Made by a program: the position numbers and the translations under genes
Shown here: one piece after another, positions 3,869 through 48,677 of the stretch
Position numbering within the stretch: position 1 is the stretch's first letter
How the letters are laid out: each line of letters begins with the position of its first letter
Assembly (NCBI GenBank): GCA_041675205.1
Contig: JBAYUF010000001.1
Location: 20,863-84,862 of the forward strand
Direction of reading: 5' to 3'
Length of the DNA stretch: 64,000 nt
Origin: Patescibacteria group bacterium
GTDB lineage: Bacteria > Patescibacteriota > Patescibacteriia > GWA2-46-9
The notes under the pieces: generated by a model
Told to the model about the DNA's origin: nothing
What the model saw: the letters and a program-made list of their open reading frames with translations, nothing else
The model's database searches: none

Positions 3869-3941
3869 TTGGGTTACTTTTCAGTGGTACTTTTTTCGTT
3901 CTTAACAGTTGACACAGTGACACTACGGTAGTAGTGTACTT

Positions 3942-3970
3942 GAACCACGGCAGTTCGTGGTTTTTGTTTA
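3942..3970 (+). terminator. Rho-independent terminator after the CYTH gene
   Basis: AACCACG-gcagtt-CGTGGTT followed by TTTGTTTA. Confidence 0.6.
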
Positions 3971-3994
3971 CTTATTCATTATAGCGATAAAGCC

Positions 3995-4108
3995 ATGATG
4001 TATTCAGATGGTGACGAGACGACAGGAGACGAGAACGCAGTCGAGCCTGCTACTGAGGAAGTAACCGAAGCTGGTGCTGACTCAGCAGACGAAGCGGCAG
4101 CCGAGTAA
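3995..4108 (+). CDS. Possible 37-aa highly acidic small protein (MMYSDGDETTGDENAVEPATEEVTEAGADSADEAAAE)
   Basis: Short ORF absent from the 60-aa ORF track. It lies between two terminators and is followed at once by its own strong terminator. No Shine-Dalgarno sequence, so coding status is uncertain. Confidence 0.2.
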   Translation: MMYSDGDETTGDENAVEPATEEVTEAGADSADEAAAE

Positions 4109-4126
4109 AAGACTTTCAGTCTTGCA

Positions 4127-4161
4127 AAGACGGACCCATCGGGGTCCGTCTTTGTTTTATT
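4127..4161 (+). terminator. Rho-independent terminator
   Basis: AAGACGGACCC-atcg-GGGTCCGTCTT followed by TGTTTTATT. Confidence 0.7.
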
Positions 4162-4209
4162 GCTCGGCGAAGTTCAGCATGCTACGCTCTTCACTGCATG
4201 AATTAGTCT

Positions 4210-5229
4210 ATGGAAGAACGCCAAGTAGCCCCAGAAGAACACAATGAAGATGAATCTTTAGATAAGACGCTGCGACCTCGCGAGCTGAAGGATTATATTG
4301 GGCAAGAAAAGGTCAAAGATAATCTAGCGGTACTTATGGAGGCGGCCAAGAAGCGGCATGAGCCGGTTGAGCACATTCTTTTGTACGGTTCTCCCGGTTT
4401 GGGGAAGACAACGCTCGCCCACATTATTGCCCGAGAAATGTCGGCAGGCATTCGAGTAACCTCGGGTCCGGCGCTTACCAAAGCGGGTGACTTGGCTGCC
4501 ATTCTGACGAATCTTGAAGCCGGAGACATTCTTTTTATTGATGAAATACATCGACTAAATAAAACCATTGAGGAGGTGCTGTATCCAGCCATGGAGGAAT
4601 TTGCATTGGACGTTGTCCTCGGGAAAGGGCCAAGTGCGCGTACGCTACGATTAGATTTACCAAAGTTCACCATTGTTGGGGCTACGACGAAGGTTAGTTT
4701 ATTGTCTGCGCCCTTACGTGACCGGTTTGGAGCTACGTACCGACTTAATTTTTACGAACTCGGTGACATCGAACGCATAGTTGGTCGTTCTGCCCGGCTT
4801 TTGAATGTGGCCACTGACGACTTAGCGGTAACAGCAATTGCCGAGCGTTCACGCCGCACGCCCCGCATCGCAAATCGTTTATTAAAACGCGTGCGCGACG
4901 TCGCCGAGGTGCGTGGTACCGGCAGCATCACAGTGCCAATAACAGAAGTAACGTGGCAGATGCTCGACGTCGACCGCTATGGACTGGACGACGTTGACCG
5001 AAGAATTCTTCGAGCAATTATTGAAATATTTTCTGGTGGTCCGGTGGGGGTTACAACATTAGCAGCGGCCACAGCCGAAGAGGTCGCCACCATTGAGGAT
5101 GTCTATGAACCGTTCTTGATGCAAATGGGTTTTTTGCAGCGCACCCCTCGCGGTCGTGTTGCTACTGAACTTGCCTACAGGCATCTCAACCTTCCGCCGC
5201 CACCTGACCTACAGCAGCGACTTCTGTAG
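4210..5229 (+). CDS. ruvB: Holliday junction branch-migration ATPase RuvB
   Basis: [19 protein letters not shown], Walker [12 protein letters not shown], and the full RuvB N/C domain order. Confidence 0.95.
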
Positions 5230-5254
5230 CTATACGGCATACGCCGTAGGTTTA

Positions 5255-5340
5255 CGCCTTACGCAGTACGCTATACGGGGATAGAGGCTCGATAACACTA
5301 TGGGGCTGTACGGGAAGTCCCAGTCGTGCGTACTGCGTAC
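5255..5340. repeat. Palindromic MITE-like element: inverted copies of TACGCAGTACGC about 50 nt apart, between the convergent ruvB and SpoIID-like genes
   Basis: cttacgcagtacgctatacgggga ... gcgtactgcgtacg. The first arm closely resembles the left flank of the four-helix-bundle gene cassette at 46035-46060. Confidence 0.5.
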
Positions 5341-5344
5341 GTCT

Positions 5345-7300
5345 TTATTTATACCACTGCGCCACTTCAGTATTCACGTAGAAAAATTTTAGGATGTCGA
5401 TATATTTCCAGCCTTCTTTTGCCATATCATTTGCGGCAAGTTGTGAGAGGCCGACCGCATGGCCGAACTTTTGACGGTTTGCATCCCATGGCACTGCTTT
5501 CCGGGTGAGCCACGGTTTCGCACTTCCACCCCAAACATCTTCCCATGATTTAGTCATGCCACTGGTACTGGCTGAGTATGGTGTAACGACGACGTTGTTT
5601 TGGTAGGTGACAACCTGGCCACGAGTAGCGGCGACTGCTTCTGCAACTTTTGGTATACGTTTTTCCGATTCGTATCCTCGGTAGTACTGATCACCAACAG
5701 ACGCAACGACATCGAAGTAACGGGAACGATGTTTCGTGCCAGTGTCGTGGTGGTAGAGTGCGTAGCTTCTCGCTGCTACAATGAGCGCCTTTTGATACTC
5801 GGGTTGGGATGCATTTGAACTTTCGGCGAGACCCTTAAGGTAATCTTCCATGGGTAGTTCATTGATAATCCAGACCTTCTCATCCTTCTCAGACCAACGA
5901 ATTTCAATGACGCCACGGTAGGAATTATCATTCCAGCCAGCATTGTAAGCAACAGGATTTTTAAATGTAGGTAGCGTTATGATAGCTGCGGTATCGGCAC
6001 CACGGATACGAAGTGGTAATGGTGAACGCACCACTGGACCTAGCCCAATGGCCACGTACGTGCGGTCCGCTGGGCTGTAAGAGAAGTAGGTTGGTATTCC
6101 GGCCGTGAATCTGCCATAGCTGGTACCACCATTGTCTTCGACGATGTAATCAACATTCGCCGTGACACCAAGTTGTCCGTCAAGTTTTTCGATACCAACA
6201 CGCATAGTTGCCTCCTCGTGTTTCGGCTGACAAAATCCTGGTCCAACCCCTGGGTCTTGCACTTCATCAGCAGCAATGCAAACAATACTTGCTGCGGAGT
6301 TCGTAGGAGTTGTTGCTGGTAGTGCGGTTGGTGCTGGGCTAGCGACACCGACAGGAATACGGAAACGCCCACCATCCAGTAGTGTGGTTCCGTTCATGGC
6401 AAGGTAGAACTCTGGTTGGTACTGCCCACCTGTTTGTGGGGCCGTGATTCGAAAGGTAATGAAACTAATTTCACCAACGTTTACAAGGCTGGTTGCTTGC
6501 GTGCCGACAATGGTGTCACTTAACCATGATGGCGCACGAAATGTCGTCCCGCTAGTTGAAGCCGGGTCGAACATGAGCTGAACAAGACTGGGTGCAGTAT
6601 TTCTCCAACTTCTCTCGCCGGTATTTTTAAAACCGATAGTGAAGTCACTACTTTCCCCGGCCGCAAGCGTTAGTGATTGTGCGGATCGAATGAGGACGGT
6701 CGCTTTTAGTGAAGCGCTTCTTTGAGCTGTGGTGTTCGTGTTCGCCGCGCTCGTTATCGGAAGTATGGCTGGTGCGGGGGTGGGAGTGGTGGTTGAAACT
6801 TTCGTTTTGCCCGGAATAAATTTTTCTCCGGTAACGGTCGTAGAAATACTAAATTCGGTACCAGGAATCTTTTCTGCACCCGTGAATACCGCAAAGTACA
6901 TAGTAAATTTTGCCGCTCGCAGTGGTGCTTCGAGTGGTAAGTTGAAAAAACCAATTTCACCCGGGGCAACTGTACCAGGGGTTAGCGCCGTAACCGTGAG
7001 GCGGTCGAGCCATTTATCGCTCGTGAACCAGTGCTCGTACTTAATAGTCTCAGTTGTTTTGATTGTGACGTTACTTTTTCCAGTGCTGTACCAGACAGAT
7101 TTTCCCGCATTTTTAAAACCAATTCGATACGTCAGCGGCTCACCTTGTTTCAATGTCGTTGGTACTGCTGACACTAAGGTACGCTCACCTGCGTATTGTA
7201 TCGTTGGAGCAGCAGTGGCGATATTTGCGTACGAAAATACACCTGGTGACAGTAGCAAGAGAACCAACAAACGTATTACTATTTTTTTCATAGAGTTCAC
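5345..7300 (-). CDS. Secreted SpoIID/LytB-domain protein with N-terminal repeated beta-rich domains
   Basis: Signal peptide MNSMKKIVIRLLVLLLLSPGVFSYA. The C-terminal SpoIID region reads YYRGYESEKRIPKVAEAVAATRGQVVTYQNN...VPWDANRQKFGHAVGLSQLAANDMAKEGWKYIDILKFFY. Confidence 0.75.
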   Translation of the reverse strand: MNSMKKIVIRLLVLLLLSPGVFSYANIATAAPTIQYAGERTLVSAVPTTLKQGEPLTYRIGFKNAGKSVWYSTGKSNVTIKTTETIKYEHWFTSDKWLDRLTVTALTPGTVAPGEIGFFNLPLEAPLRAAKFTMYFAVFTGAEKIPGTEFSISTTVTGEKFIPGKTKVSTTTPTPAPAILPITSAANTNTTAQRSASLKATVLIRSAQSLTLAAGESSDFTIGFKNTGERSWRNTAPSLVQLMFDPASTSGTTFRAPSWLSDTIVGTQATSLVNVGEISFITFRITAPQTGGQYQPEFYLAMNGTTLLDGGRFRIPVGVASPAPTALPATTPTNSAASIVCIAADEVQDPGVGPGFCQPKHEEATMRVGIEKLDGQLGVTANVDYIVEDNGGTSYGRFTAGIPTYFSYSPADRTYVAIGLGPVVRSPLPLRIRGADTAAIITLPTFKNPVAYNAGWNDNSYRGVIEIRWSEKDEKVWIINELPMEDYLKGLAESSNASQPEYQKALIVAARSYALYHHDTGTKHRSRYFDVVASVGDQYYRGYESEKRIPKVAEAVAATRGQVVTYQNNVVVTPYSASTSGMTKSWEDVWGGSAKPWLTRKAVPWDANRQKFGHAVGLSQLAANDMAKEGWKYIDILKFFYVNTEVAQWYK

Positions 7301-21600: not shown

Positions 21601-24231
21601 GCAGTTGGTGCTCGAACGATTCAAGTTGGTGTTTCGTCTGCTGCGGACACCATTACCATTGGCGACGCCAATGCAGACGTTTCACTAACTGATGCCAACT
21701 GGTCGGTCAGCGCCGCTGGTGCCGCCAGTTTTACTTCGGCCCTCGTGAACGGCACGCTCACGCTGCAAAATAGTGAAACACTTTCTACCGGTACTGACGC
21801 CACATTCCTCTTTGGTCGAAATGATACCGGCACCGTAACCATAACTGCAGCTGACGACGACAGCACGGCTGCGCTCACCATTCTCTCTGGCGGCGCTGCC
21901 GCACTTGGACTCGACACTGGCGGCGCTGCTGCGGTGAATATTGGTAACACGAACGCTACATCAGTATCGCTCTGCAACAGTGCTGCTTGCGACACAATTG
22001 AAATTGGCACCAACACCGACGCCGATACCATTACCATTGGTGAGGCTAATGACAACGTTGCTATAACTGATGCCCAGTGGAGCATCAACGGGAGTGGCGC
22101 CGCGAGTCTCGTTACTGTAGTTGGCTCGACCTCAGTTAGCTCTCCAATTTTCACGTCAACCGGCTCCATCGCGATTAAGCCTGGCGCAAATGCCGTAACG
22201 GCAATCCAAATTCAGCAGACGGATGGTACGAATATTTTGAACGTTGACACCACCAATAAACGTATTGGCATCGGTAATGCGGCCCCTGATTCCGTGCTCC
22301 ACATTACTGGCTCAACGGCCGGCAATGGTGCCACAGCCATAGCGGGCATGAAGTCATCGCTCACCATTAACCCTTCGGGTGGCGGTTATCAATTTGGTAA
22401 TCGTATGGAAGTGTCGGTGGCGAACACCTCGACCGCCACAACTGCTGATGGTCAATTTATTCGTATGACCGACAATACGGGCCTCGCCAATACGGTTCGT
22501 GCCCTTGAAGTTCAAGCTGATGGCGGCACCAACACGACGGGCGTAAACACTGGTGTCATTGCCTTTGGAAAAACGTTTGGTATTCAGGGCGTTACCTACG
22601 GTTCAGCCGCCGGTGTTTCGGTGCCGGCCGGCGTGTATGCGGAAACCGCCGGGACGGCGAATGGAAATGCGCTCAGAGCCTATAGCGCCACCATTACTTC
22701 TGCCGATCTTGTTAGTTTTTATACCCAAAGCAGCGTGTTAACCGGCAATGGTTTAACCATGGACTTAGGGAATGTTGGAACTGGCTCAGGTAGCTTTTCC
22801 GGTAATTTTGTCAGCTTAAAAAATGCGAGTGTTAGTAAATTTACCGTTGATGACGACGGCAGCACTTTTGTTAGCTTGACCGGTACGGCTACCACGAATG
22901 GGCTTTGTCACACCTCTGCTGGTGACGCGACAAATGACGAAATCGTTGATTGCTCAGGCGCCCCTTCAGACTTAGCCGAAAATTTTGGTACCACTGACCC
23001 AACGATTACCGCCGGAGATGTCGTTGTCGTAACTGGTACGGCAACTGTCGCAACGGTTGACGGTCTGTTTACCACAAAGGCATGGGTGGAGAAGTCGACC
23101 GCTGCGTATGCCCGTTCGGTCATCGGCGTCATCTCGACACAACCAAACCAACTGTATGCAGACAATGTATTTTCGGAAGCAGAAAATCCACGCCCGGTAA
23201 CCTTGGCTGGTCGAGTGCCAGTTAAGGTGAGCACACAAAATGGGGCAATCCAAACTGGCGATCTCCTGACGTCTTCATCGATTCCCGGTGTGGCCATGAA
23301 AGCCACGCAACCGGGCATGGTGCTTGGGCAAGCGTTGTCAGGGTTTGACGGTAGCGACATCGGAACAGTCATTACTTTTATTGCTCCGTTCTATTTTGAC
23401 CCCACAACGGTTGTTGATCCGGATGGTAATGTGACCGTGCAGCGCGGTGCAGCAACGACAACGTTGTTGGTTGATGCAGTGACAACCGCTTCCATTATTA
23501 ATCAACAAGGAAGCGGGGACTTGCTGCAGTTGCAGACTGACGGGGTAAATCGCTTACTCGTACAAAATGATGGCGCGTTTTCGTTAAATGTTCTGACGAC
23601 CGATATGACCCTTCCGGTCTTTAGTGTTCAGAATGCCGACACAACGTTACTGACATTGAACGCCCAAGGGGATCTGGCACTCCGCGGCGTACTCGTTATC
23701 GAGAACGATAGTTTCGCTGGCAGCATTGACACCGATGCCACTGGCGAAGCTCGCATTGATTTTGAATACTCGCTTGGTACTGGTAAGCCAGTGGTGCAAT
23801 TAACCGCCGAGGGCGAAATGCCAGTTCACGCGCAGGTGCTTCGTTTACTGCAAGATGAACAGGAAAATTATACAGGGTTCGTACTACGCACTACGTCGCT
23901 TGACGGGGCATTAGTAAGCGGCGCCACGGTGCACTATTTGGTTATTGCTAAACCGGCTGACTATGCGCCCGTGGGCATAAATGAGAGTACGTCGATTGTT
24001 GTCTATGATGCGCCAGCGACTAGTCAAGAAATTACCAACGTCCCGCCAGTAGAAGAAAGTGTAGTGGTGGAGAATGAAGAGGCGGTTACCGATGTTGAAT
24101 CGGTCGAATCAGTAGAGGGTACGGATACTGTTACTCCCGAGAGTGTAGCGACAGTCGAACCAGAAGTTCCGAGTGCAGAAATTGTGGCACCAGCAGATGA
24201 ACCAGTTGTCGAAATAGTTCCCGAAAGTTGA
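18679..24231 (+). CDS. Giant secreted/surface protein (1850 aa): T/G/S/A-rich, N-terminal anchor, internal duplication, acidic C-terminus
   Basis: N-terminal hydrophobic segment ISSFVIVVALVVTGF. Repeated motifs GTITSGIWNAGAVTSSG (x2), GDTG(S/T)VTS(A/T)MILDGTVANGDLA (x2) and LLQGCSD(S/G)E(V/I)LKW.E.T.VWACAVD (x2). The C-terminal 60 aa are rich in E and V. The antisense ORFs inside are low-complexity artefacts. Confidence 0.7.
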   Translation: MHFFLIRKQAGIRRRISSFVIVVALVVTGFTPGNILAATGVPNIINHQGRLLDASSNLIGGSGTNYCFRFSLYSDTTVGAPDTKLWPSGTPSTMTVEVKNGIFNVGIGDTAAGGDTLDFDFQTTDTSYLNVEVAPQVSSSCVGVSFETLSPRQRVVASGYAINAETVGGFTPAQSATGSQIPVLTSGNLFLGGTNPQLNVTGANTLTLQGGAGTGAIQFFSSSNAITSAGALTIAGVFDTASTLQAGSSNVTLTLATGFIDADALTLFAGADGASATTSTGSGLEAAADGLSLLQGCSDSEVLKWNETTDVWACAVDATGGSASLQGAYDGGAAITSSNARDLAFTLANTATDSNFAISIAADSTSTVSISRADGGATSPAQLFLLDNLDTDTAQPIALKIQSLAGTITTALDVSDAEIGTALAIGSNSITTSSGTIAATELDRLTGKDAPLVDTNDAVATAITGTGTITSGIWNAGAVTSSGAIQGTTLTATAAGGVILQNAETITNAIDGLITFTRTDANADTISISPATGGAATFAGIFTSADLTADRTWTLPNVSGTVITTGDTGSVTSAMILDGTVANGDLAAGTFTNITGTGALDAGSITANFGAINVGADSITGGAMQGTFLTATTAAFGLVIGTGVNATTLSSTASAARAISFPDVAGTLISTGDTGTVTSTMILDGTVANGDLAGSIAASKLVGSDIAAVGTITSGIWNAGAVTSSGNIDATGTLQAGSSNITITVAAGYLDGDALQLTNAGAGATSSNSGLEVISDKIGLLQGCSDGEILKWTEGTGVWACAVDGGGAAGDSVSINGSATTDSNFIDVVASATAAAINWSLNTVPAPDEISLAIGAASGTDAGIVTANAQTLGGTKTFANGLTITAGQTFTMNSDAFTDLTGTNLEVASNALRVIANPTFSTSVTTPLLQSADNGSTLTLNMPVSGADAGAHTLALQVDGNTAISVAATGDGAGAVGARTIQVGVSSAADTITIGDANADVSLTDANWSVSAAGAASFTSALVNGTLTLQNSETLSTGTDATFLFGRNDTGTVTITAADDDSTAALTILSGGAAALGLDTGGAAAVNIGNTNATSVSLCNSAACDTIEIGTNTDADTITIGEANDNVAITDAQWSINGSGAASLVTVVGSTSVSSPIFTSTGSIAIKPGANAVTAIQIQQTDGTNILNVDTTNKRIGIGNAAPDSVLHITGSTAGNGATAIAGMKSSLTINPSGGGYQFGNRMEVSVANTSTATTADGQFIRMTDNTGLANTVRALEVQADGGTNTTGVNTGVIAFGKTFGIQGVTYGSAAGVSVPAGVYAETAGTANGNALRAYSATITSADLVSFYTQSSVLTGNGLTMDLGNVGTGSGSFSGNFVSLKNASVSKFTVDDDGSTFVSLTGTATTNGLCHTSAGDATNDEIVDCSGAPSDLAENFGTTDPTITAGDVVVVTGTATVATVDGLFTTKAWVEKSTAAYARSVIGVISTQPNQLYADNVFSEAENPRPVTLAGRVPVKVSTQNGAIQTGDLLTSSSIPGVAMKATQPGMVLGQALSGFDGSDIGTVITFIAPFYFDPTTVVDPDGNVTVQRGAATTTLLVDAVTTASIINQQGSGDLLQLQTDGVNRLLVQNDGAFSLNVLTTDMTLPVFSVQNADTTLLTLNAQGDLALRGVLVIENDSFAGSIDTDATGEARIDFEYSLGTGKPVVQLTAEGEMPVHAQVLRLLQDEQENYTGFVLRTTSLDGALVSGATVHYLVIAKPADYAPVGINESTSIVVYDAPATSQEITNVPPVEESVVVENEEAVTDVESVESVEGTDTVTPESVATVEPEVPSAEIVAPADEPVVEIVPES

Positions 24232-27300: not shown

Positions 27301-29998
27301 CGACCTCGCTGGGGACACAACTGTTTCGGGTGTCCTTACTATCGGCGGCTCAGCTACGCTCGACGGAAAGACTCGTACCATCACCCTCTCCGGCACTTCT
27401 GGTACACCCTTCGTCAAAACTGGTACCTTCACTCCTTCAACCTCAACCGTTGTCTACAGTGGTGCCAATGCTAGCAGTAACACCAACGTTGCAGCGGCCA
27501 CGTACAACAACCTCCAGGTTACTGGTAGCGACACCTACGACGTAGCAGGAGACACAACTGTTTCGGGGGTCCTTACTATTGGCGCAAACGCCACCCTAGA
27601 CGCCCAAACATACACAGTAACGCTATCTGGTTCTGGTACACCACTTGTAAAGACAGGTACATTTACCGCTTCAACCTCAACCGTAACGTATAGCGGTAGT
27701 TCACCTACCATTGCAGCGACTACGTATAACGTCTTGAATCTGTCTGGCTCTGGCACAGCAGTATTGCCGAGCGGTACCCTGGCAGTACTAGACTTAAATG
27801 TAACTACTGGAACAGTTTCTGCCGCGAGCAATAACCCAACCATTAACGTCAGTGGAAACATTGCATTGTCGAGTGGTGTTACCTATACAAAAGGTTCTGG
27901 TACTACGACGTTTTCTGGTGCCTCGAAGACAATTACTGACAGTACGGCTAGCGCACAGGATTTGGGTGTAGTTTCAATTTCTGGGACCTATGCTCTCTCG
28001 TCGAATGCTAAAATGACCAGCGTAGCCGGAGCCGGAGCATTAACAACGAATGCCAATACCCTAACGTTGACCGGTTCTGGTACCGTTTTGTCTGTTACGA
28101 CATTTACCGCTTCGACTGGTTCTACGGTTACCTATACCAGCGGAAGCGGTGCTTCTGTTGGTGCAAGGACCTACTACAATCTGACCATCAATGGTACGGG
28201 TACGTTCGCTGCGGCGGGTGCTATCATTGTGAATAACGATCTGACGGTGACCAGTGGAACCTTGGCCATGGATACGAGTAACCTACAAGTTGGTTTATCG
28301 AGTATCTCAAGTTCTGGTAGCGTTAAGGTTGCGGCAAGTCAATCGCTCACTCAATCAGCCAGTGGGACCACAACAATTCTTAGTTCGTCAGCCGGAGCAA
28401 ATTGTATTGGCTCCAATGGCTCCAATTGCAGTGGGACGGCAGGAACAATTACTCTTGGTGGCTTGTCGATTGGGGATGGAGTGTCAGGCAACTTCACAAC
28501 AACTCTTGCCGGAGATGTCACTATTGCTGGTGTCCTCACTATTGCTAGTACAAACACGCTCGACGGTTCGACTCGCACCATAACCCTCTCTGACACCTCT
28601 GGTACACCGTTCGTGAAAACCGGTACCTTCACCCCTTCAACCTCAACCGTTGTCTACAGTGGTGCCAATGCTGGCGGCAATACAAACGTTGCAGCGGCCA
28701 CGTACAACAACGTCCAGGTTACTGGTAGCGACACCTACGACGTAGCAGGAGACACAACTGTTTCGGGTGTCCTTACTATCGGCGCCTCGGCCACGCTCGA
28801 CGGTTCGACTCGCACTATCACTCTCTCCGGCACCTCCGGTACACCTCTTGTCAAAACCGGTACCTTCACCCCTTCAACTTCGACCGTTGTCTATAGTGGT
28901 GCCAATGCTAGCGGTAACACCAACGTTGCAGCGGCTACGTATAATAACCTCCAGGTTACTGGCAGCGACACTTACGACGTAGCAGGGGACACAACTGTTT
29001 CAGGGGTCCTTACCATTGGCGCCTCAGCCACGCTCGACGGTTCGACTCGCACTATCACTCTCTCCGGCACTTCTGGTACACCGCTTGTCAAAACCGGAAC
29101 CTTCACTCCTTCAACTTCGACCGTTGTATTTACTGGTGACAATGGTGGTGGAACAACAACCATTCCAACAGCAACCTACTACAATCTTACAGTGAACAAT
29201 GCGAGCGAAACGTATGCGCTTGGTTCGGGGAGTCCAGTGGTGAACAATGATTTAACTATTACTGCCGGTACCCTTGACCTCGACGCAAGTGACCCGTCGC
29301 TCTCAGTAAAGGGAGACGTGGTAATTGCCGGTACGCTCCTTGGTTCGGCTAGTAGCCCCCTCAATGTTGATGGTGACTGGACCAACAATGGTACATTCAC
29401 TCATTCAAACGGTACCGTTGCATTTACGAACAGTGCGGGGTTACTGGAAACGTCAAATATTGGTGGCTCAAACGGTACGAACTTCTACTCACTCAGCGTC
29501 ACTGCGAATGGAAAGTATCTTCGATTTGCGGCCGCCAAAACGTTTGGGGTTGCTGGTGTGCTGACGATTACGGGTGGTCAAGCTATTCCCGACAACATTC
29601 GTATTTTCTCAAGTACTGTCGGGGCTGGTTCAAGTAGTGATCAGTGGCTGCTTAATCTCACTGGTTCCTCGAATGTTCTCTTCGCGATTGTTCAGAACGC
29701 TGGCTGTGCGCCAGGGTCAAGTTCTGTGGCCTCGCACTCAACGAATACAAACGCCGGGAATAACAGTGCGTGTTGGCCCTTTGGTGTTCCTGGAGCGCCT
29801 GATGTGACTGGTGGTCGTTTTGATCAACCCGGCGGGGGTACGGCTACAACCGGCGGTACAAGCCTTAGTGGAGGTATTAGTGGTGGCGGAGGCGGTGGCG
29901 GAGCACCAAGTCCTGACCGACTTGATGAACCGGGTGGTGGCGCACCGACAACGGGTGGAACTGATCAAGGAAGTGGTGGTGGAGCACCTGCTCCGTAG
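24371..29998 (+). CDS. Giant surface repeat protein (about 1875 aa) with an N-terminal anchor and at least 5 copies of an 80-aa T/S/G-rich module
   Basis: Hydrophobic SFFVVGLLVGLGFIFAA. Repeated module TRTITLSGTSGTP(F/L)VKTGTFTPSTSTVVYSGANA..NTNVAAATYNN.QVTG.DTYD.AGDTTVSGVLTIG. Gly-rich C-terminus. The start is uncertain: the ORF-track 24287 and the ATG at 24320 both overlap the upstream terminator and a TGtTACAAT -10, so 24371 is plausible. Confidence 0.65.
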   Translation: MIQRFLGGHLFHTAEELAVGRKVSARNFENSVTAKSYLARSFFVVGLLVGLGFIFAAPTPTYAAAKTWDGGGGCGSGTNRYASCAGNWNSNTLPVDGDSINFTDTNGSQEFLWDNNTYGTLPTTVASFTTNYYGSTNTLTFQKSLTVTDEYHATSSADNVTINSGVTLTAGYFFITDATVTNNGTIKFTCTYGTTCGGTSHDAAFYGSGALASSASTSIAEYAGTNQPVYNANYYHLKISGTAVNYGFQIASNGQISGSGTLTAGTGTTTFSGSGTINLPNAGFTTLWVGTSGTLTVNQNISVSTSIGAGPFTSGNTITYGGTPTLTMTGGTIAAASVATMNLYNVTIAGAGVTSTGTPNIANAFVVNSGATFSGSMAKTGGSITNNAATSSALTITTLALTSGTITTGSNFDLSTSISGAGNFTASAGTITMTMTSGTAIAAGAGTLTFNSVAIASGATVATGRNFSVAGNWTNSGGTFTPSTYTVTLSGAGGSTQVIAGNTTFYNLTATAAAARTIRFTAGTTTTVTGTWTVTGSASQLITLQSSTTSAWTINPTAASVSYASISYSTNTGVAFCATYSTDGGNNTSWSIGSAASCGATISGTVYSTEGGAGITGTPTVRIKVNGAGTYSTTASSGVFSVSSVVVNSGDVITVYLDTNGGSSAALVTVSDGSNTSSLSLYQNQLVVRYETGSSITNTNLGQYDKDNDSDIHFTSNAGVLTVDSDYELHIWTGKTFAPGGTVTANGDVHIMGTYTAPATTTVAGSFTNAGTFTPGTGTLTLSGTSKQITGTPTSESFYDLTISGTVASTRSFTVSHTMTVNGTFTPGASDVVTLTGATLTGSGTVKVTRTTTIPAFVNQYAYTTPAPTLTNLTVDYSGTSQIVTNLTYSNLIVSGTITTGTQTATVSGLFTVSGTFTPSAGTITLSGTSGTVLTVSGTHAPTGTATTVYSGANAGGNTNVAAATYNNLQVTGADTYDLAGDTTVSGVLTIGGSATLDGKTRTITLSGTSGTPFVKTGTFTPSTSTVVYSGANASSNTNVAAATYNNLQVTGSDTYDVAGDTTVSGVLTIGANATLDAQTYTVTLSGSGTPLVKTGTFTASTSTVTYSGSSPTIAATTYNVLNLSGSGTAVLPSGTLAVLDLNVTTGTVSAASNNPTINVSGNIALSSGVTYTKGSGTTTFSGASKTITDSTASAQDLGVVSISGTYALSSNAKMTSVAGAGALTTNANTLTLTGSGTVLSVTTFTASTGSTVTYTSGSGASVGARTYYNLTINGTGTFAAAGAIIVNNDLTVTSGTLAMDTSNLQVGLSSISSSGSVKVAASQSLTQSASGTTTILSSSAGANCIGSNGSNCSGTAGTITLGGLSIGDGVSGNFTTTLAGDVTIAGVLTIASTNTLDGSTRTITLSDTSGTPFVKTGTFTPSTSTVVYSGANAGGNTNVAAATYNNVQVTGSDTYDVAGDTTVSGVLTIGASATLDGSTRTITLSGTSGTPLVKTGTFTPSTSTVVYSGANASGNTNVAAATYNNLQVTGSDTYDVAGDTTVSGVLTIGASATLDGSTRTITLSGTSGTPLVKTGTFTPSTSTVVFTGDNGGGTTTIPTATYYNLTVNNASETYALGSGSPVVNNDLTITAGTLDLDASDPSLSVKGDVVIAGTLLGSASSPLNVDGDWTNNGTFTHSNGTVAFTNSAGLLETSNIGGSNGTNFYSLSVTANGKYLRFAAAKTFGVAGVLTITGGQAIPDNIRIFSSTVGAGSSSDQWLLNLTGSSNVLFAIVQNAGCAPGSSSVASHSTNTNAGNNSACWPFGVPGAPDVTGGRFDQPGGGTATTGGTSLSGGISGGGGGGGAPSPDRLDEPGGGAPTTGGTDQGSGGGAPAP
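27211..27710. repeat. Tandem array of about 240-bp units (2+ copies) inside the giant gene
   Basis: Direct repeats at about 90% nucleotide identity that encode the 80-aa module. They are related to the second array at 28520-29140. Confidence 0.8.
28520..29140. repeat. Second tandem array of about 240-bp units (about 2.5 copies) inside the giant gene
   Basis: Near-identical units starting near 28560, 28800 and 29040. Confidence 0.8.
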
Positions 29999-43534: not shown

Positions 43535-43569
43535 AAGTTGCCACGGGCAGAAGAGCGGACTATCCTAGT

Positions 43570-43632
43570 AGCCATTAGCCATTAGCCATTAGCCATTAGC
43601 CATTAGCCATTAGCCATTAGCCATTAGCCATT
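43570..43632. repeat. Perfect heptanucleotide microsatellite (AGCCATT)x9 that ends 5 nt before the clpP ATG
   Basis: Nine uninterrupted copies, 63 bp, in the nrnA-clpP intergenic region. Confidence 0.9.
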
Positions 43633-44228: not shown

Positions 44229-44497
44229 AGTGGCTAGTAGGGTGTATTGTTAAGGCATCTGGAGCACTTGGGGCCTTGCGATAATGGTATTTTGGTGGTA
44301 TAGTTTCGCCGCAACGTTTCCTTTACCTATCCTCGAACATTCATTCGTTCCGAAACGGAATTGGTGATCGGCAGATTCATTTTCATGGCTTCTATTCCTG
44401 TTGTACGTGATTGATTGCCACCGACGCATCGTGCGCTTCGGTCTTGTGTGCACCAACTAAAAAGTTCGGTACGGGGGTGTTCGTTTACGAACACACT

Positions 44498-46024
44498 ATG
44501 TCTGTAACTGTGGTTATTATTTCGTCTATCCTCGCGCTTGGCGTTGGGGCTGCTTTTGGTTACCTGGCTCGTCGTTTAGTTGGGTCGCGGACCGTTAATT
44601 CAGCTGAAGCTCGTGCGGAAAGTATTCTCGAAGAAGCGAAACGTCGAGAGAAGGATACTGTCCTTGGGGCAAAGCAAGAAGCTTTAAAAATTTTAGACGA
44701 AGCGAAGCAAGAGATTGCAGGTGAGCGACGGGAGCTAAAAGAACAAGCCCAAAAAGTAGAGAAGCGAGAAGGGTTGTTTGAGAAGAAGTTACTAGAAGTT
44801 GACGACCATGAAAAACAGATTGAAAAGGACAAGCAACGGGTCGAAGAACAGTTGAAGCAGGCAACGGAAGCGCACGCCGCAGCCGTAACGAAGCTTGAGT
44901 TGTCAGCCGGTTTGAATCGTGACCAGGCTCGCACTGAGCTTTTTGCCGCTGTTGAAGCAGATGCCAAAGAAGATATCGTATCTCGAATTCGTAAAGTACA
45001 AGATGAGGGGGCGACTGAAATCGAAGAAAAGGCCAAGCGAGTGTTGGCCATGGTCATTCAGCGCTGCGCCATATCACACGCCGCTGACACCATGACGACA
45101 ACCGTTGATTTGCCGTCTGACGACATGAAGGGTCGCATCATTGGAAAAGAAGGTCGTAACATCAAAGCCCTCGAGCAACTTACCGGTGTTGAAATTGTTG
45201 TTGATGAGACGCCCGGGAGCATCATGATTACGGGTTTTAATCTGGTGCGTCGTCACTTAGCGAAGCGAGCCCTAGAGCGGTTAATGCTTGATGGTCGGAT
45301 TCATCCGACCCGAATTGAAGAATCAGTGCTGGAAGCAAAAAGAGAGTTAGCCCTTGAAATGAAAAAAGAAGGTGAGGCTGCTATGTATCAGCTCGGGCTC
45401 ACCGGGGTGGATCCTAAATTAGTGCAGATTCTTGGTCGGCTAAAATTTCGTACCAGCTTCGGACAGAACGTACTCCAGCACTCATTGGAAGTCGGTACAC
45501 TGGCCGGATTATTAGCAGAAGAATTAGGGGCAGATGTTCCAGCGTGTAAGAAGGGCGGGCTTTTCCACGATATTGGAAAAGCGGTTGACCACGAAGTGCA
45601 GGGTGCCCATACAGAACTTGGTTACCGACTGATGAAGAAGTACGGCATGCCAGAGCATATCGCCTACATGGCAATTGCCCACCATGAAGATCGCCCTTCT
45701 ACGTTAGAGGGTGTCATCGTTCGCACAGCTGATGCTATTTCTGGTTCTCGGCCAGGAGCGAGACGGGACAGCGTGGAGCGGTACATTCAGCGACTAGAAG
45801 AAATTGAAAAAGTTTCTTTGGCGGTTCCTGGTGTCACAAAAGCGTACGCCATTCAAGCTGGCCGCGAAGTGCGGGTCTTCGTGACGCCGACTGAAGTAGA
45901 CGACCTTGGCATGATTAAAGTTGCGCAGCTCATTGCTAGAAACATTGAGAAGGAACTCAATTACCCAGGTGAAATTAAAGTGAATTGTATTCGGGAAAGT
46001 CGTGTTATCGAGTACGCTCGTTAG
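44498..46024 (+). CDS. rny: Ribonuclease Y
   Basis: N-terminal TM (VVIISSILALGVGAAFGYL), coiled coil, KH domain (IIGKEGRNIKALE), HD domain (HSLEV...HDIGK). The ORF-track start at 44411 is probably too far upstream. Confidence 0.9.
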   Translation: MSVTVVIISSILALGVGAAFGYLARRLVGSRTVNSAEARAESILEEAKRREKDTVLGAKQEALKILDEAKQEIAGERRELKEQAQKVEKREGLFEKKLLEVDDHEKQIEKDKQRVEEQLKQATEAHAAAVTKLELSAGLNRDQARTELFAAVEADAKEDIVSRIRKVQDEGATEIEEKAKRVLAMVIQRCAISHAADTMTTTVDLPSDDMKGRIIGKEGRNIKALEQLTGVEIVVDETPGSIMITGFNLVRRHLAKRALERLMLDGRIHPTRIEESVLEAKRELALEMKKEGEAAMYQLGLTGVDPKLVQILGRLKFRTSFGQNVLQHSLEVGTLAGLLAEELGADVPACKKGGLFHDIGKAVDHEVQGAHTELGYRLMKKYGMPEHIAYMAIAHHEDRPSTLEGVIVRTADAISGSRPGARRDSVERYIQRLEEIEKVSLAVPGVTKAYAIQAGREVRVFVTPTEVDDLGMIKVAQLIARNIEKELNYPGEIKVNCIRESRVIEYAR

Positions 46025-46029
46025 GCTGC

Positions 46030-46062
46030 TTGCCATACGCAGTACGCTTTACGATATACGGG
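46030..46062. repeat. Left inverted repeat of the four-helix-bundle gene cassette
   Basis: CATACGCAGTACGCTTTACGATATACGGGG. Its imperfect reverse complement lies at 46495-46525. Confidence 0.5.
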
Positions 46063-46114
46063 GGAGGTGATAGTGGGTAGTGGAAGAAATGTTACTCAGT
46101 GTAGCTTATAGAAT

Positions 46115-46498
46115 ATGAACGCGACGCATCTTGCAACAGAGGAAAAATTTAAAGATTTGCGGGTGTGGCAGCAAGCCCACGAGTTAACACTTTTGGTGTA
46201 TAAGATAACAAAAAGTTTCCCTGACACGGAGCGTTTTGCCTTAGTAAGCCAAATGCGTCGTGCAGCAATCTCAGTGGTTGCCAATATTGTCGAAGGGTCT
46301 AAACATCGTACAACGAAGGATCGTATTCATTTTCACGTTATAGCAAATGGCTCGCTCGAAGAGTTAAAATACTACTTCATTTTATCGTTAGATCTCGGAT
46401 TCATTAACCAGAAAGAGCAGGAAGACTTACTTGATTTGGCGAGAGGCGTTGGTGCTATGTTACATGGTCTTACTAATGCTCTGCGCAGTGGCGTATAG
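46115..46498 (+). CDS. Four-helix-bundle protein of the TIGR02436 family (23S rRNA intervening-sequence protein type)
   Basis: LRVWQQAHELTLLVYKITKSFPDTERFALVSQMRRAAISVVANIVEGS is the family signature; 127 aa. Confidence 0.85.
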   Translation: MNATHLATEEKFKDLRVWQQAHELTLLVYKITKSFPDTERFALVSQMRRAAISVVANIVEGSKHRTTKDRIHFHVIANGSLEELKYYFILSLDLGFINQKEQEDLLDLARGVGAMLHGLTNALRSGV

Positions 46499-46525
46499 CG
46501 TAAAGCATATAGCGTATGGGTTTAG
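46495..46525. repeat. Right inverted repeat of the four-helix-bundle gene cassette
   Basis: GGCGTATAGCGTAAAGCATATAGCGTATG. Its reverse complement matches the left repeat at about 24 of 30 positions. Confidence 0.5.
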
Positions 46526-47316
46526 CCATTCTTTTCCTGGGTGACGTTGTAGGGCGAGTTGGCCGTACTGGTGTTGCGAAAGTTTTAAAGCACTGGAAGA
46601 CCCAACTGCAGCCAGATGTCATTATCGCGAACGCTGAAAATATTGCGCATGGGAAGGGCATTACCCGGGCGACCATCGAGGAATTACGTGTCGCTGGTGT
46701 CGATGCTTTTACTAGTGGGAACCATGTTTTCCGAAAGCCAGAGATTTACGATTTTATTGAGGACCCGAAATTGCACATTACTCGGCCGGCGAATTATCCG
46801 CCCGGCGTCGCTGGTAGTGGCGCCACCTTGGTGCCCACCCCACATGGTGACCTACTCCTCATAAACACGATGGGACGAGTTTTCATGCATGAAACATTGG
46901 ATTGCCCGTTTCAGGCGGTCGATTCGGTTCTGGCGGATTACCAAAATCGCCCGCACGTCGCCACCTTTGTTGATATGCATGCTGAAGCGACCAGCGAAAA
47001 GATAGCCTTCGGTCACTACCTTGATGGTCGGGTTAGTGCTGTTGTTGGCACCCACACGCACGTAGCGACGGCTGACGCAGAGATTTTACCTGGTGGCACG
47101 GCGTACATTACTGATGTTGGTATGTGCGGCTATAAAGGTGGTGTGCTTGGCGTTGATAAAGCTAACGTACTACATGCCTTTTTAACGCAAGAGCCAGTTC
47201 GTCATGAAATTCCAGAAGCTGGTTTGTGTGCTGTAAACGGCGTGCTCGTTGTTATTGATGCCTCTAACGGCAAGGCAATTTCTATTCGGCAACTGCACGA
47301 AGAAGTGATGGTGTAG
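46516..47316 (+). CDS. ymdB: YmdB-family metallophosphoesterase (2',3'-cyclic-nucleotide phosphodiesterase, TIGR00282)
   Basis: MGLAILFLGDVVGRVGRTGV...DVIIANAENIAHGKGIT...GNHVF. Confidence 0.85.
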   Translation: MGLAILFLGDVVGRVGRTGVAKVLKHWKTQLQPDVIIANAENIAHGKGITRATIEELRVAGVDAFTSGNHVFRKPEIYDFIEDPKLHITRPANYPPGVAGSGATLVPTPHGDLLLINTMGRVFMHETLDCPFQAVDSVLADYQNRPHVATFVDMHAEATSEKIAFGHYLDGRVSAVVGTHTHVATADAEILPGGTAYITDVGMCGYKGGVLGVDKANVLHAFLTQEPVRHEIPEAGLCAVNGVLVVIDASNGKAISIRQLHEEVMV

Positions 47317-47340
47317 TGCCTGGGGGGTGCGACATTTAGC

Positions 47341-47369
47341 AAAAACCCAGCCTGGCGGCTGGGTTTTTT
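47341..47369 (+). terminator. Rho-independent terminator after the ymdB-like gene
   Basis: AAAA-CCCAGCC-tggc-GGCTGGG followed by TTTTTTG. Confidence 0.8.
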
Positions 47370-47376
47370 GTACTCT

Positions 47377-48480
47377 CATGGGGCACGCAGGAGGAGAGAG
47401 ATTTTCTCGCGGCAAACGCTTCTTTTTGAAGAGAGGCGTCTACGTTTGAGATCTGCGTACCCCATGAGAGTGGGCGAGGGTGAAGAGGAAAACGGTTGAA
47501 GATACAATTTTCTTTCTTCACCCTCGCCCGGCGCTGAAGGAGGCTCTTCGGCGCCCTTTGAAGATAATGCAAAGTCGCAGTATCGGCAAAGGGCAACGCA
47601 CCTCATTATTATATGGGAAGAGGCGGAAAACGAGTGCTGTCGTTTTTCCGCCCCGAAGAACGTGGAGTGGGTGCATTTAGGTGCACAACCACTCCGCATC
47701 GACCGGGTTGACGCTCATTGATGAGCCTTTTTCCACGGTCTGGAGAAAGACGGAGGGGGTAGAAGGAAAGTACCACCACACCTCCGCAGCGCGCACAAAT
47801 GAGCCAAAGAGTGACCGGACGGTTTTTTCCGTAGTCGTTTTCTCTTTTTGTGCACATTCCGCGCGCTAAAGAAACTAGGGTGGGAGAATCGTGGAGCGTT
47901 GCGCTCCGGAAGGAATTCTCTTGGTGGACATCCACCCTAGGGTCCACAAGGGACCAGTTCTTTGTGAGTATTTTTACCCACGGACCTTGGGATTAGAAGC
48001 TGGAAGTATTGATCCAAGGGATCACTTCCGAAAGAGTAGTTTCAAAGAAGTGGCGCAGGATAAGCCGAACCAAATCTTTTCTCTACCGCCTTGGCTCTAT
48101 AGCGAGCACAAGTCTAACCCCGAAGTCCGTAGGCAGCTCTGATAACAGAGCACCCACGGATGTTGGCCTTGTTAGAGACTCCCACCACCCTCCGGGCTAA
48201 GCGCTGGCGTGACCCGAAGGTTGCCGGCGTAATGATCTTTTAGCAGGGACTCGCGAGTTTGCACCAGCGAAAGCCTTGCTTTGAAATCTGCCCGTCCACG
48301 AAACGTGGAACAGGTTTAGCCCTTAAGGGTGGTAGGAACCTCACGCGATAACAAAACGGCGCAGCCGCTTTTGAAAGAGACTGCGCCGTTTTGGCGTACA
48401 CCAACTAACCCTAACGGGTTTGTTGGCGAGTCTCTCTCCTCGCGTTTTGACTGAGGTTAAATTCAAAGAGCACGGTTTGT
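47377..48480. ncRNA. Candidate large structured non-coding RNA of unknown family (or an array of structured elements)
   Basis: 1.1 kb at GC of about 55% with no ORF above 112 aa in any frame, in an otherwise 90%-coding genome. Several perfect stem-loops: a 15-16 bp stem at 47472-47487 / 47515-47529; an 11-bp stem at 47622-47632 / 47641-47652; nested helices at 47875-47940 (CTAGGGTGG...CCACCCTAG enclosing GGAGCGttGCGCTCC); and long-range pairing 47377-47390 with 47453-47466. Confidence 0.3.
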
Positions 48481-48677
48481 TCCATTTAAGGAACTAAGTA
48501 GCATAGCGCAGCTTAGGGAATATGTCAAGACTTAACAAGAAAAGAGCTGTATTTACTAAGAAAATAGGAGTTTTTGGTCATTTGTGGAAACTAAATCTAT
48601 CGGTTAGAGTACTTGTGTATAGAGTAAAAGCACGTTTTTTGAGGCCTTAATAGAATCATCCTTGAACCAGGAACGCC

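Follow-up and report, generated by a model that had tools for sequence, protein, structure and literature searches.

What does a gene of the S23p family, also called the 23S intervening-sequence family, do inside a protein-coding operon, and why is it enclosed by inverted repeats? This question is raised by a 64,000-nucleotide stretch of DNA from a Patescibacteria group bacterium (GenBank assembly GCA_041675205.1, contig JBAYUF010000001.1, positions 20,863 to 84,862 of the forward strand; hereafter the window, whose numbering is used throughout). There, a gene for a four-helix-bundle (4HB) protein of 127 residues lies between rny, encoding RNase Y, and a gene of the ymdB family. To our knowledge, the function and the scattered distribution of this protein family have been unexplained since the 1990s, even though the family is very large and structures have been solved, and heptanucleotide repeat arrays have been regarded as a separate unexplained oddity of bacterial genomes. 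A first-pass annotation of the window had described the gene and its flanks as a small cargo-carrying cassette resembling a miniature inverted-repeat transposable element (MITE). We find that the flanks are arrays of tandem heptamers, that most 4HB genes tested across bacteria and phages carry arrays of short tandem units, and that gene and repeats together appear to form a single genetic unit, ancient and self-contained, of the rRNA intervening-sequence kind. The anatomy of the cassette and the family-wide association of gene and arrays, taken alone, are in our judgment close to certain; the interpretations built on them are graded below.

Profile searches confirmed the identity of the gene and its place between rny and ymdB. 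The protein scores 121.5 bits against PF05635 (cut-off 33.8) and 110.1 bits against TIGR02436 (cut-off 24), and its closest solved homologue is XCC0516 of Xanthomonas campestris (PDB 2GSC, E = 1.8e-19, residues 12-124), a pentameric S23p four-helix bundle. No PADLOC defence-system model matches it. The imperfect inverted repeats reported by the first-pass annotation are also present, within 2-4 nt of the strings that it gave. They form two arms of 28 nt each, which lie 431 nt apart and are complementary at 24/28 positions (86%) according to a repeat search. The Smith-Waterman score of this arm pair is 36, and 1553 equally spaced placements elsewhere in the window give a mean of 13.2, a standard deviation of 2.2, and a maximum of 26. 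The pair thus stands about 10 standard deviations above the window background, with 0/1553 placements reaching its score, which refutes the possibility that the flanking similarity is non-significant.

Each arm is made of four tandem heptamers of the form NNTACGN, in which the other three positions vary. The TACG core is found in 4/4 units on the left and 3/4 on the right, the remaining right unit having TATG, and the order of the variable positions is mirrored across the arms (CA/AG/TT/TA on the left vs CA/TA/TT/TA on the right). The 5′ arm has no second match within the window when up to 3 mismatches are allowed. It starts 9 nt past the rny stop codon, and both the 4HB stop codon (46496-46498) and the ymdB ATG (46516-46518) fall within the 3′ arm. 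The cassette lies inside a co-directional operon and leaves no room for a promoter of its own; a promoter and terminator scan of 45800-46800 gave no more sites than shuffled sequences did. The inner spacer between the 5′ array and the 4HB ATG, read directly, contains one GGAGG and a short GTG-type stretch with a 7-nt period, and no clear Shine-Dalgarno sequence is seen there beside the ATG. Searching the window with Rfam at gathering thresholds returned no family, and no rRNA either.

The same architecture is found throughout the family. Species-representative genomes were scanned with a 27-member family alignment, which gave 80 loci from Bacteroidota, Acidobacteriota, Chloroflexota, Planctomycetota, Verrucomicrobiota, Nitrospirota, Bacillota, Patescibacteria, and other phyla. 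For each locus, the 150 nt upstream of the 4HB gene were aligned to the reverse complement of the downstream flank, and a score of at least 25 was taken as an inverted repeat. This threshold is reached by 70/81 distinct 4HB loci vs 5/122 control open reading frames (ORFs) from the same loci, with median scores of 38 and 16, respectively (Mann-Whitney p = 1.5e-24). In an independent sample of viral contigs, 17/20 loci score at least 27 and show the same architecture, so the idea that other 4HB genes are flanked in the same way holds in both samples. A period of 7 nt fits the units best in 47/70 loci; the best fit is 8 in 14 loci, 9 in 7, and 6 in 2. The units are lineage-specific (for example AGTAGCC, GTAGACA, AGAATTC, AGGAGCT, and GAAGTTAA), the median arm length of 32 nt corresponds to about 4.6 units, and the arms, which are complementary at 88% of positions overall (2084/2360), usually adjoin the start and stop codons or run into them. 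The neighbouring genes are co-directional upstream in 66/75 loci, downstream in 59/73, and on both sides in 48/69, and the gaps to them (median about 50 nt) are filled by the arrays. In the Uhrbacteria locus L003, the cassette is located between argS and lgt, and the ATG of lgt is inside the 3′ array, as that of ymdB is in the window; annotation should take into account that downstream host start codons can sit within a 3′ array. None of the 111 loci examined, which include the 81 distinct 4HB loci, contains any of four conserved 23S motifs, and by this measure none is located in 23S rRNA.

The arrays show two further properties of mechanistic interest. Variation within the units is concentrated at certain positions, so that each unit consists of a core and spacers (statistic 425.7 vs a null of 303.8, standard deviation 18, 0/500). 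Such a pattern is predicted by recognition with a 7-nt periodicity and not by simple slippage with uniform decay afterwards. Unit similarity is also related to 4HB protein identity (Spearman -0.375; Mantel 0/2000). Units of the AGAATTC type, for instance, occur with proteins that share 61-69% identity in Acidobacteriota, Verrucomicrobiota, Bacteroidota, Bacillota, Dadabacteria, and Planctomycetota. This co-variation indicates that the gene and its arrays, as a single unit, either move together or evolve together. If they do, a candidate nucleic-acid ligand is at hand for a protein whose crystal structures are known, and the arrays would provide a diagnostic signature for annotating these elements and their ORF-less derivatives.

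Such derivatives are observed. Convergent array pairs of the local unit without an ORF are found within ±2.5 kb in 4/44 loci vs 0/220 with foreign units, and the one in L071 folds at z = -5.7. The pattern TACG-N3-TACG-N3-TACG occurs 8 times in the window vs 0.28 expected, and the occurrences fall at both cassette arms, at a single-mismatch site at 23878, and at the locus 5230-5343. The last is an ORF-less array pair that starts directly past the ruvB stop codon, between convergent genes, and shares TACGCAGTACGCTNTACG with the 5′ arm of the cassette (17/18 positions). The fold of 5225-5350 has z = -3.0 against shuffles. Within the 64 kb there are two copies of the TACG type. We note that the hairpin at 5230-5343 could also serve as a bidirectional terminator-like structure.

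Heptamers of other types were also noticed. A perfect direct array of TAGCCAT is found two genes upstream of rny; its heptamer differs from the TACG type and it belongs to the same gene cluster. No inverted partner of this array is present in the window, and the array is absent from the compared loci. TAGCCAT is one base off the ATAAGCC-type unit seen on either side of the 4HB gene in the Uhrbacteria locus L003. In Candidatus Chloroploca (L088), a 600-nt field of CAGGTGT-type heptamers at 3940-4560 comprises several short tandem hairpin modules and is situated 1.1 kb downstream of a 4HB cassette with a CAGGTGT-type unit.

We then consider how the cassette is distributed among relatives at the same junction. 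The closer YmdB relatives came from a protein search followed by contig look-up, the metagenome YmdB scan having given only distant ones (37-51% identity), and they retain DHH-clpP-rny-ymdB synteny. L001 and L002, whose 4HB proteins are 90% and 63% identical to that of the window, have the gene between rny and ymdB with TACG-type arrays on both sides, so the relatives that carry the gene also carry the repeats. The 3′ arm of L001 is identical to that of the window, and its 5′ arm is longer by exactly one 7-nt unit. The inner 5′ spacer is about 77-81% identical in L001; L002 lacks it, and its array runs directly up to the ATG. By tblastn, the 63% identity of the L002 4HB protein stands beside 58% for YmdB, a divergence commensurate with that of the neighbours. 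Empty junctions, with spacers of 1 nt in L111, 24 nt in L105/L106, and about 35 nt in L095 and L103, are found in other relatives. The direct adjacency in L111 and L105 indicates that the 4HB gene is an insertion. A third state is represented by ORF-less inverted array pairs with the unit TCAAAAG in L104 (spacer 169 nt) and L108-L110 (101 nt), and by a hairpin with CGTCAAT-type units in L093 and L101 (about 120 nt). In a neighbour-joining tree of YmdB, the window and L001 are sister to a clade of L002, L104, L105, L108, and L111. According to this tree, either the cassette is ancestral and has undergone several reductions or losses, or the junction acquired it on more than one occasion.

The spacer of L105 (2477-2503) ends in CGTATATCGTATG, as does that of L106. 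This end resembles two 3′-arm units and matches the 3′ arm of the window next to the ymdB ATG at 10/13 positions. As judged from the sequence, a TACG-type cassette may have been lost here and left two units behind.

The gene-less hairpins also suggest a different origin of the repeats, namely a native regulatory structure between rny and ymdB (an attenuator, a processing site, or a device of translational coupling) into which a 4HB gene happened to land. Relatives L104, L108, and L093, which lack the gene, indeed keep a hairpin with heptamer-like arms at the junction, and the arms touch the rny stop and ymdB start codons. We consider this origin very unlikely. 4HB genes in unrelated contexts and phyla have the same architecture, and two relatives, those with spacers of 1 and 24 nt, are without any junction structure. 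Moreover, the junction heptamer varies by lineage (TACG, TCAAAAG, CGTCAAT), and its TACG unit recurs in the ORF-less hairpin far away in the window.

A site can also be kept for a long time elsewhere. In L055, L056, L057, L065, L072, and L076 (Prevotella, Muribaculaceae, Parabacteroides, Phocaeicola, and other Bacteroidales), the flanks of the cassette can be aligned on both sides at 65-75% nucleotide identity, which indicates that a single cassette site has been kept across several families.

The closest precedent for the unit is found in rRNA. The 23S intervening sequence of Coxiella burnetii is 428-444 nt long and has a 28-bp terminal stem whose loop holds an S23p ORF; GACAGAT heptamers, three to four of them depending on the strain, stand just before the start codon, RNase III cuts at the first repeat, and the ORF is described as decaying (PMC4990558). 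The 23S intervening sequences of Coxiella burnetii, Leptospira, and Brucella share with the cassette the protein family, a unit of about 430-490 nt, and terminal inverted repeats that form, in the cassette by prediction, a stem of about 28 bp closing the ORF loop. Further common features are tandem heptamers in the 5′ arm before the start codon, variable copy number, and, probably for the cassette too, dependence on read-through transcription from the host. The two differ in location, the intervening sequence being in an rRNA helix and the cassette at the rny stop and ymdB start codons, in a window without rRNA. They also differ in the state of the gene: the Coxiella ORF is described as decaying, whereas the 4HB protein of the cassette is under purifying selection (dN/dS = 0.10 against L001).

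Based on these comparisons, we propose a composite mechanism, for which we see even chances: the cassette would be of the intervening-sequence type but housed within a protein-coding operon instead of 23S rRNA. Its unit consists of a lineage-specific heptamer array, the 4HB gene, and an inverted copy of the array, and it would be transcribed by read-through from rny. In the transcript, the arrays would probably pair into an imperfect stem of about 28-33 bp that loops out the 4HB ORF. The stem is predicted in both minimum-free-energy and centroid folds, in the former with five extra outer pairs (GGCUG/UAGCC) that would place its base at the final base of the rny stop codon. A stem of this kind would place the stop codon of rny beside the start codon of ymdB and so make the insertion tolerable, and, by analogy with the heptamer stem of the Coxiella intervening sequence, it would be a substrate of RNase III. 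This would hint at how insertions are tolerated inside rRNA and inside tightly coupled operons.

The protein would have its own part in this mechanism. The heptamers would probably be cognate binding sites of the pentameric 4HB ring, about one unit per subunit, and the protein would target the arrays beside its own gene as well as, in trans, ORF-less arrays with a matching unit. The TRAP ring binds 11 (G/U)AG repeats with variable spacers, and it offers a functional analogy only: its fold is unrelated, but it is likewise a ring that reads tandem short cores separated by variable spacers, as the heptamer units might be read. Over evolutionary time, gene and arrays would spread horizontally as a unit, with phages among the carriers. 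In the clade of the window, the cassette would have passed down by vertical inheritance, now and then shrinking to a hairpin or disappearing altogether.

Several points weigh against this mechanism. The folding energy of the whole cassette barely beats shuffles (z = -1.9). Arm mismatches, read in the sense RNA, comprise 56 of the G.U type vs 78 of the A.C type; with no preference for G.U, the data do not show sense-RNA pairing as a selected property, and the case for RNA pairing is left with the intervening-sequence precedent alone. The stem, if formed, hides the start codon of ymdB, and the ymdB mRNA could be damaged when the stem is cut. A crude regular-expression search of the window found no RNase III-like signature. 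The 5′ arm is purine-rich in 62/70 loci, to which the TACG units of the window are an exception, and the match of five units to a pentamer is numerology at this stage. Finally, the mechanism does not predict that the 4HB gene is so similar to that of L001 at silent sites relative to the host flanks. In the cassette (window 46115-46540 vs L001 1631-2056), third-codon-position identity is 0.78 for the 4HB gene, as against 0.52 for rny and 0.39 for ymdB. Nucleotide identity is highest, at 92-96%, in the 3′ half of the ORF and the right arm and falls sharply to about 70% at the ymdB start. On sequence grounds, either an exchange of the cassette between the lineages after their split or a nucleotide constraint beyond coding may account for this excess. 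Other pairs with alignable flanks are only 65-75% identical or else 99.9% (L058/L059), so the excess remains a single observation. All 11 Uhrbacteria copies of the cassette (L003-L013) are identical, and no array polymorphism is seen among these strains.

Some of these points would be expected if the arrays were only tandem binding sites, for the 4HB ring or for a host factor, on DNA or RNA and serving for example in autoregulation; their inversion would then be a by-product, with neither RNA stem nor RNase III involved. The missing G.U bias, the core-plus-spacer structure of the units, and their co-variation with the protein all agree with such a role, as do arrays that occur in direct orientation only, such as the nine TAGCCAT units before clpP and an unpaired GGGAATC array at XCC0516. 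Even so, we regard it as unlikely that binding sites are all there is. The mirrored variable positions and the complementarity of the arms exceed what a shared unit type requires, the ORF-less copies are nearly always convergent and fold well, as in L071 and at 5225-5350, and experiments show that the stem is cut in the homologous rRNA elements.

The arrays can also be seen as the ends of a DNA transposon, that is, as multi-site terminal inverted repeats comparable to the subterminal clusters of Ac/Ds and the ends of Tn7, with a recombinase encoded elsewhere that moves the cassette and its ORF-less, MITE-like copies. The short repeated sites inverted at both ends fit this, and so do the ORF-less copies of the same unit in one genome, the filled, hairpin-only, and empty states of one junction among relatives, the presence of cassettes on viral contigs, and host contexts that differ by lineage (argS-lgt in L003, the accB side in Xanthomonas). 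Symmetry at the DNA level would give arm mismatches without wobble bias, and the silent-site identity of the cassette, above that of its flanks, is compatible with recent exchange. What stands of the MITE-like description of the first-pass annotation is that gene and ends form one small unit with inverted ends, that ORF-less versions share these ends with a gene-carrying copy, and that the unit is present or absent among relatives.

The remainder of that description did not hold, and we consider movement by a transposase distinctly unlikely. The ends are arrays of tandem short units and not unique termini, and a conserved 127-residue gene is carried, although the copy at 5230-5343 does lack an ORF. 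Empty sites were found, but no target-site duplication is seen, either at the cassette (GGCTGCTTG and GTTTAGCC outside the arms) or at the ORF-less copy 5230-5343 (CTTCTGTAG and TCTTTATT). A crude regular-expression search revealed no transposase-like gene in the window, and no transposase is present among the Pfam-labelled called genes of L001-L012 and L104-L111. The units vary by lineage and track the 4HB protein rather than a separate enzyme. The same site is occupied across a clade with 56-81% YmdB identity, as one site is across the Bacteroidales families, which argues for long stability. A recent hop is therefore not supported; the insertion is old and has been vertically inherited in the clade.

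The fold of the protein invites one more comparison, with the accessory protein Avd of diversity-generating retroelements (DGRs). bAvd (PDB 4DWL) has a homologous pentameric four-helix-bundle fold and reportedly binds nucleic acid, and the 4HB protein gives weak matches to bAvd PF22296 (41.4 bits) and to the Avd model NF033474 (45.4 bits). The gene could accordingly be read as an Avd gene that lost its reverse transcriptase, which we hold to be extremely improbable. The NF033474 score is under the cut-off of 80, whereas the TIGR02436 cut-off is well exceeded. A crude regular-expression search of the window for a reverse transcriptase gave no ORF of at least 150 residues with a YxDD motif, and the direct repeats include no template/variable repeat pair near the gene. 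Among viral loci, a YxDD ORF is nearby in only 3/21.

Heptamer arrays have been reported in other settings. In Xanthomonas there are 186 GGGAATC arrays, about 70 of them in convergent pairs, and a supplementary table lists as array #15 a GGGAATC x4 array that overlaps the start codon of XCC0516, 6 nt past bccP (PMC4692102). TAACTGA arrays are found in Beggiatoaceae, Cyanobacteria, and Bacteroidetes (PMC4679880). The studies propose G-quadruplex or translational roles, and the text of neither mentions an S23 or four-helix family (PMC4692102, PMC4679880). Like the cassette arrays, the GGGAATC, TAACTGA, and cyanobacterial STRR arrays are intergenic tandem 7-nt units, often near start codons and frequently in convergent pairs capable of forming hairpins, with one dominant unit per genome. 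The cassette arrays differ from those reports in being statistically tied to a specific gene family. Searches of the full-text literature, subscription-only titles being outside reach, found no paper that ties the whole family to inverted heptamer arrays, and only the note on heptamers specific to Coxiella. We tentatively raise the possibility, which we think more doubtful than the mechanism above, that PF05635 4HB genes are the signature of a ubiquitous, unrecognised class of bacterial and phage elements, each made of a ring protein and inverted arrays of the heptamer cognate to it. The ORF-bearing 23S intervening sequences would then be copies that landed in rRNA, and the excess of heptanucleotide arrays in bacterial genomes, long without explanation (STRR, GGGAATC, and TAACTGA arrays, together with solo hairpins), would be ORF-less progeny or trans-targets.

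Table 1. Features of the rny-ymdB junction and heptamer arrays elsewhere in the window.
Feature	Position	Strand	Description
rny (RNase Y)	44411-46024	+	Host gene upstream, same direction; ORF and Pfam domain match
Stem outer extension	46024-46028	+	GGCUG paired to UAGCC at 46523-46527; minimum-free-energy prediction only
5′ arm	46033-46060	+	Four tandem heptamers, CATACGC AGTACGC TTTACGA TATACGG = CCATACGCAGTACGCTTTACGATATACG
Inner 5′ spacer	46061-46114	+	From 5′ array to 4HB ATG; read directly
4HB gene, 127 residues	46115-46498	+	PF05635 / TIGR02436; homologue of XCC0516 (PDB 2GSC)
3′ arm	46492-46519	+	Inverted heptamers, GCGTATA GCGTAAA GCATATA GCGTATG = CGTATAGCGTAAAGCATATAGCGTATGG
ymdB-family metallophosphoesterase	46516-47316	+	Host gene downstream, same direction
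Intrinsic terminator	47341-47370		3′ of ymdB
ORF-less TACG-type array pair	5230-5343	+	About 7 heptamers, then a perfect 12-bp stem UACGCAGUACGC/GCGUACUGCGUA; loop about 45 nt
Perfect direct array (TAGCCAT) x 9.1	43569-43632	+	Ends 5 nt before the clpP start codon

Some minor observations concern the surroundings of the cassette. The rny ORF as called begins at TTG 44411, and an internal ATG about 29 codons further on is the likelier start, as it coincides with the onset of homology and of a predicted membrane helix (MSVTVVIISS..., within 44411-44500). Downstream of ymdB, about 1.3 kb (47320-48670) is without a convincing ORF and contains the intrinsic terminator and a long hairpin at about 47466-47530. 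Rfam matches in this region are hairpins at chance level only. The segment 47337-47514 is 92-97% identical to L001, which exceeds the conservation of the adjacent genes, and no Rfam family scores above threshold there. L105/L106 likewise have a long gene-poor stretch downstream of ymdB. Elsewhere in the window, at 28555-29144, Tandem Repeats Finder reports a 237-nt tandem repeat of 2.5 copies with 89% matches, which probably encodes repeated protein domains.

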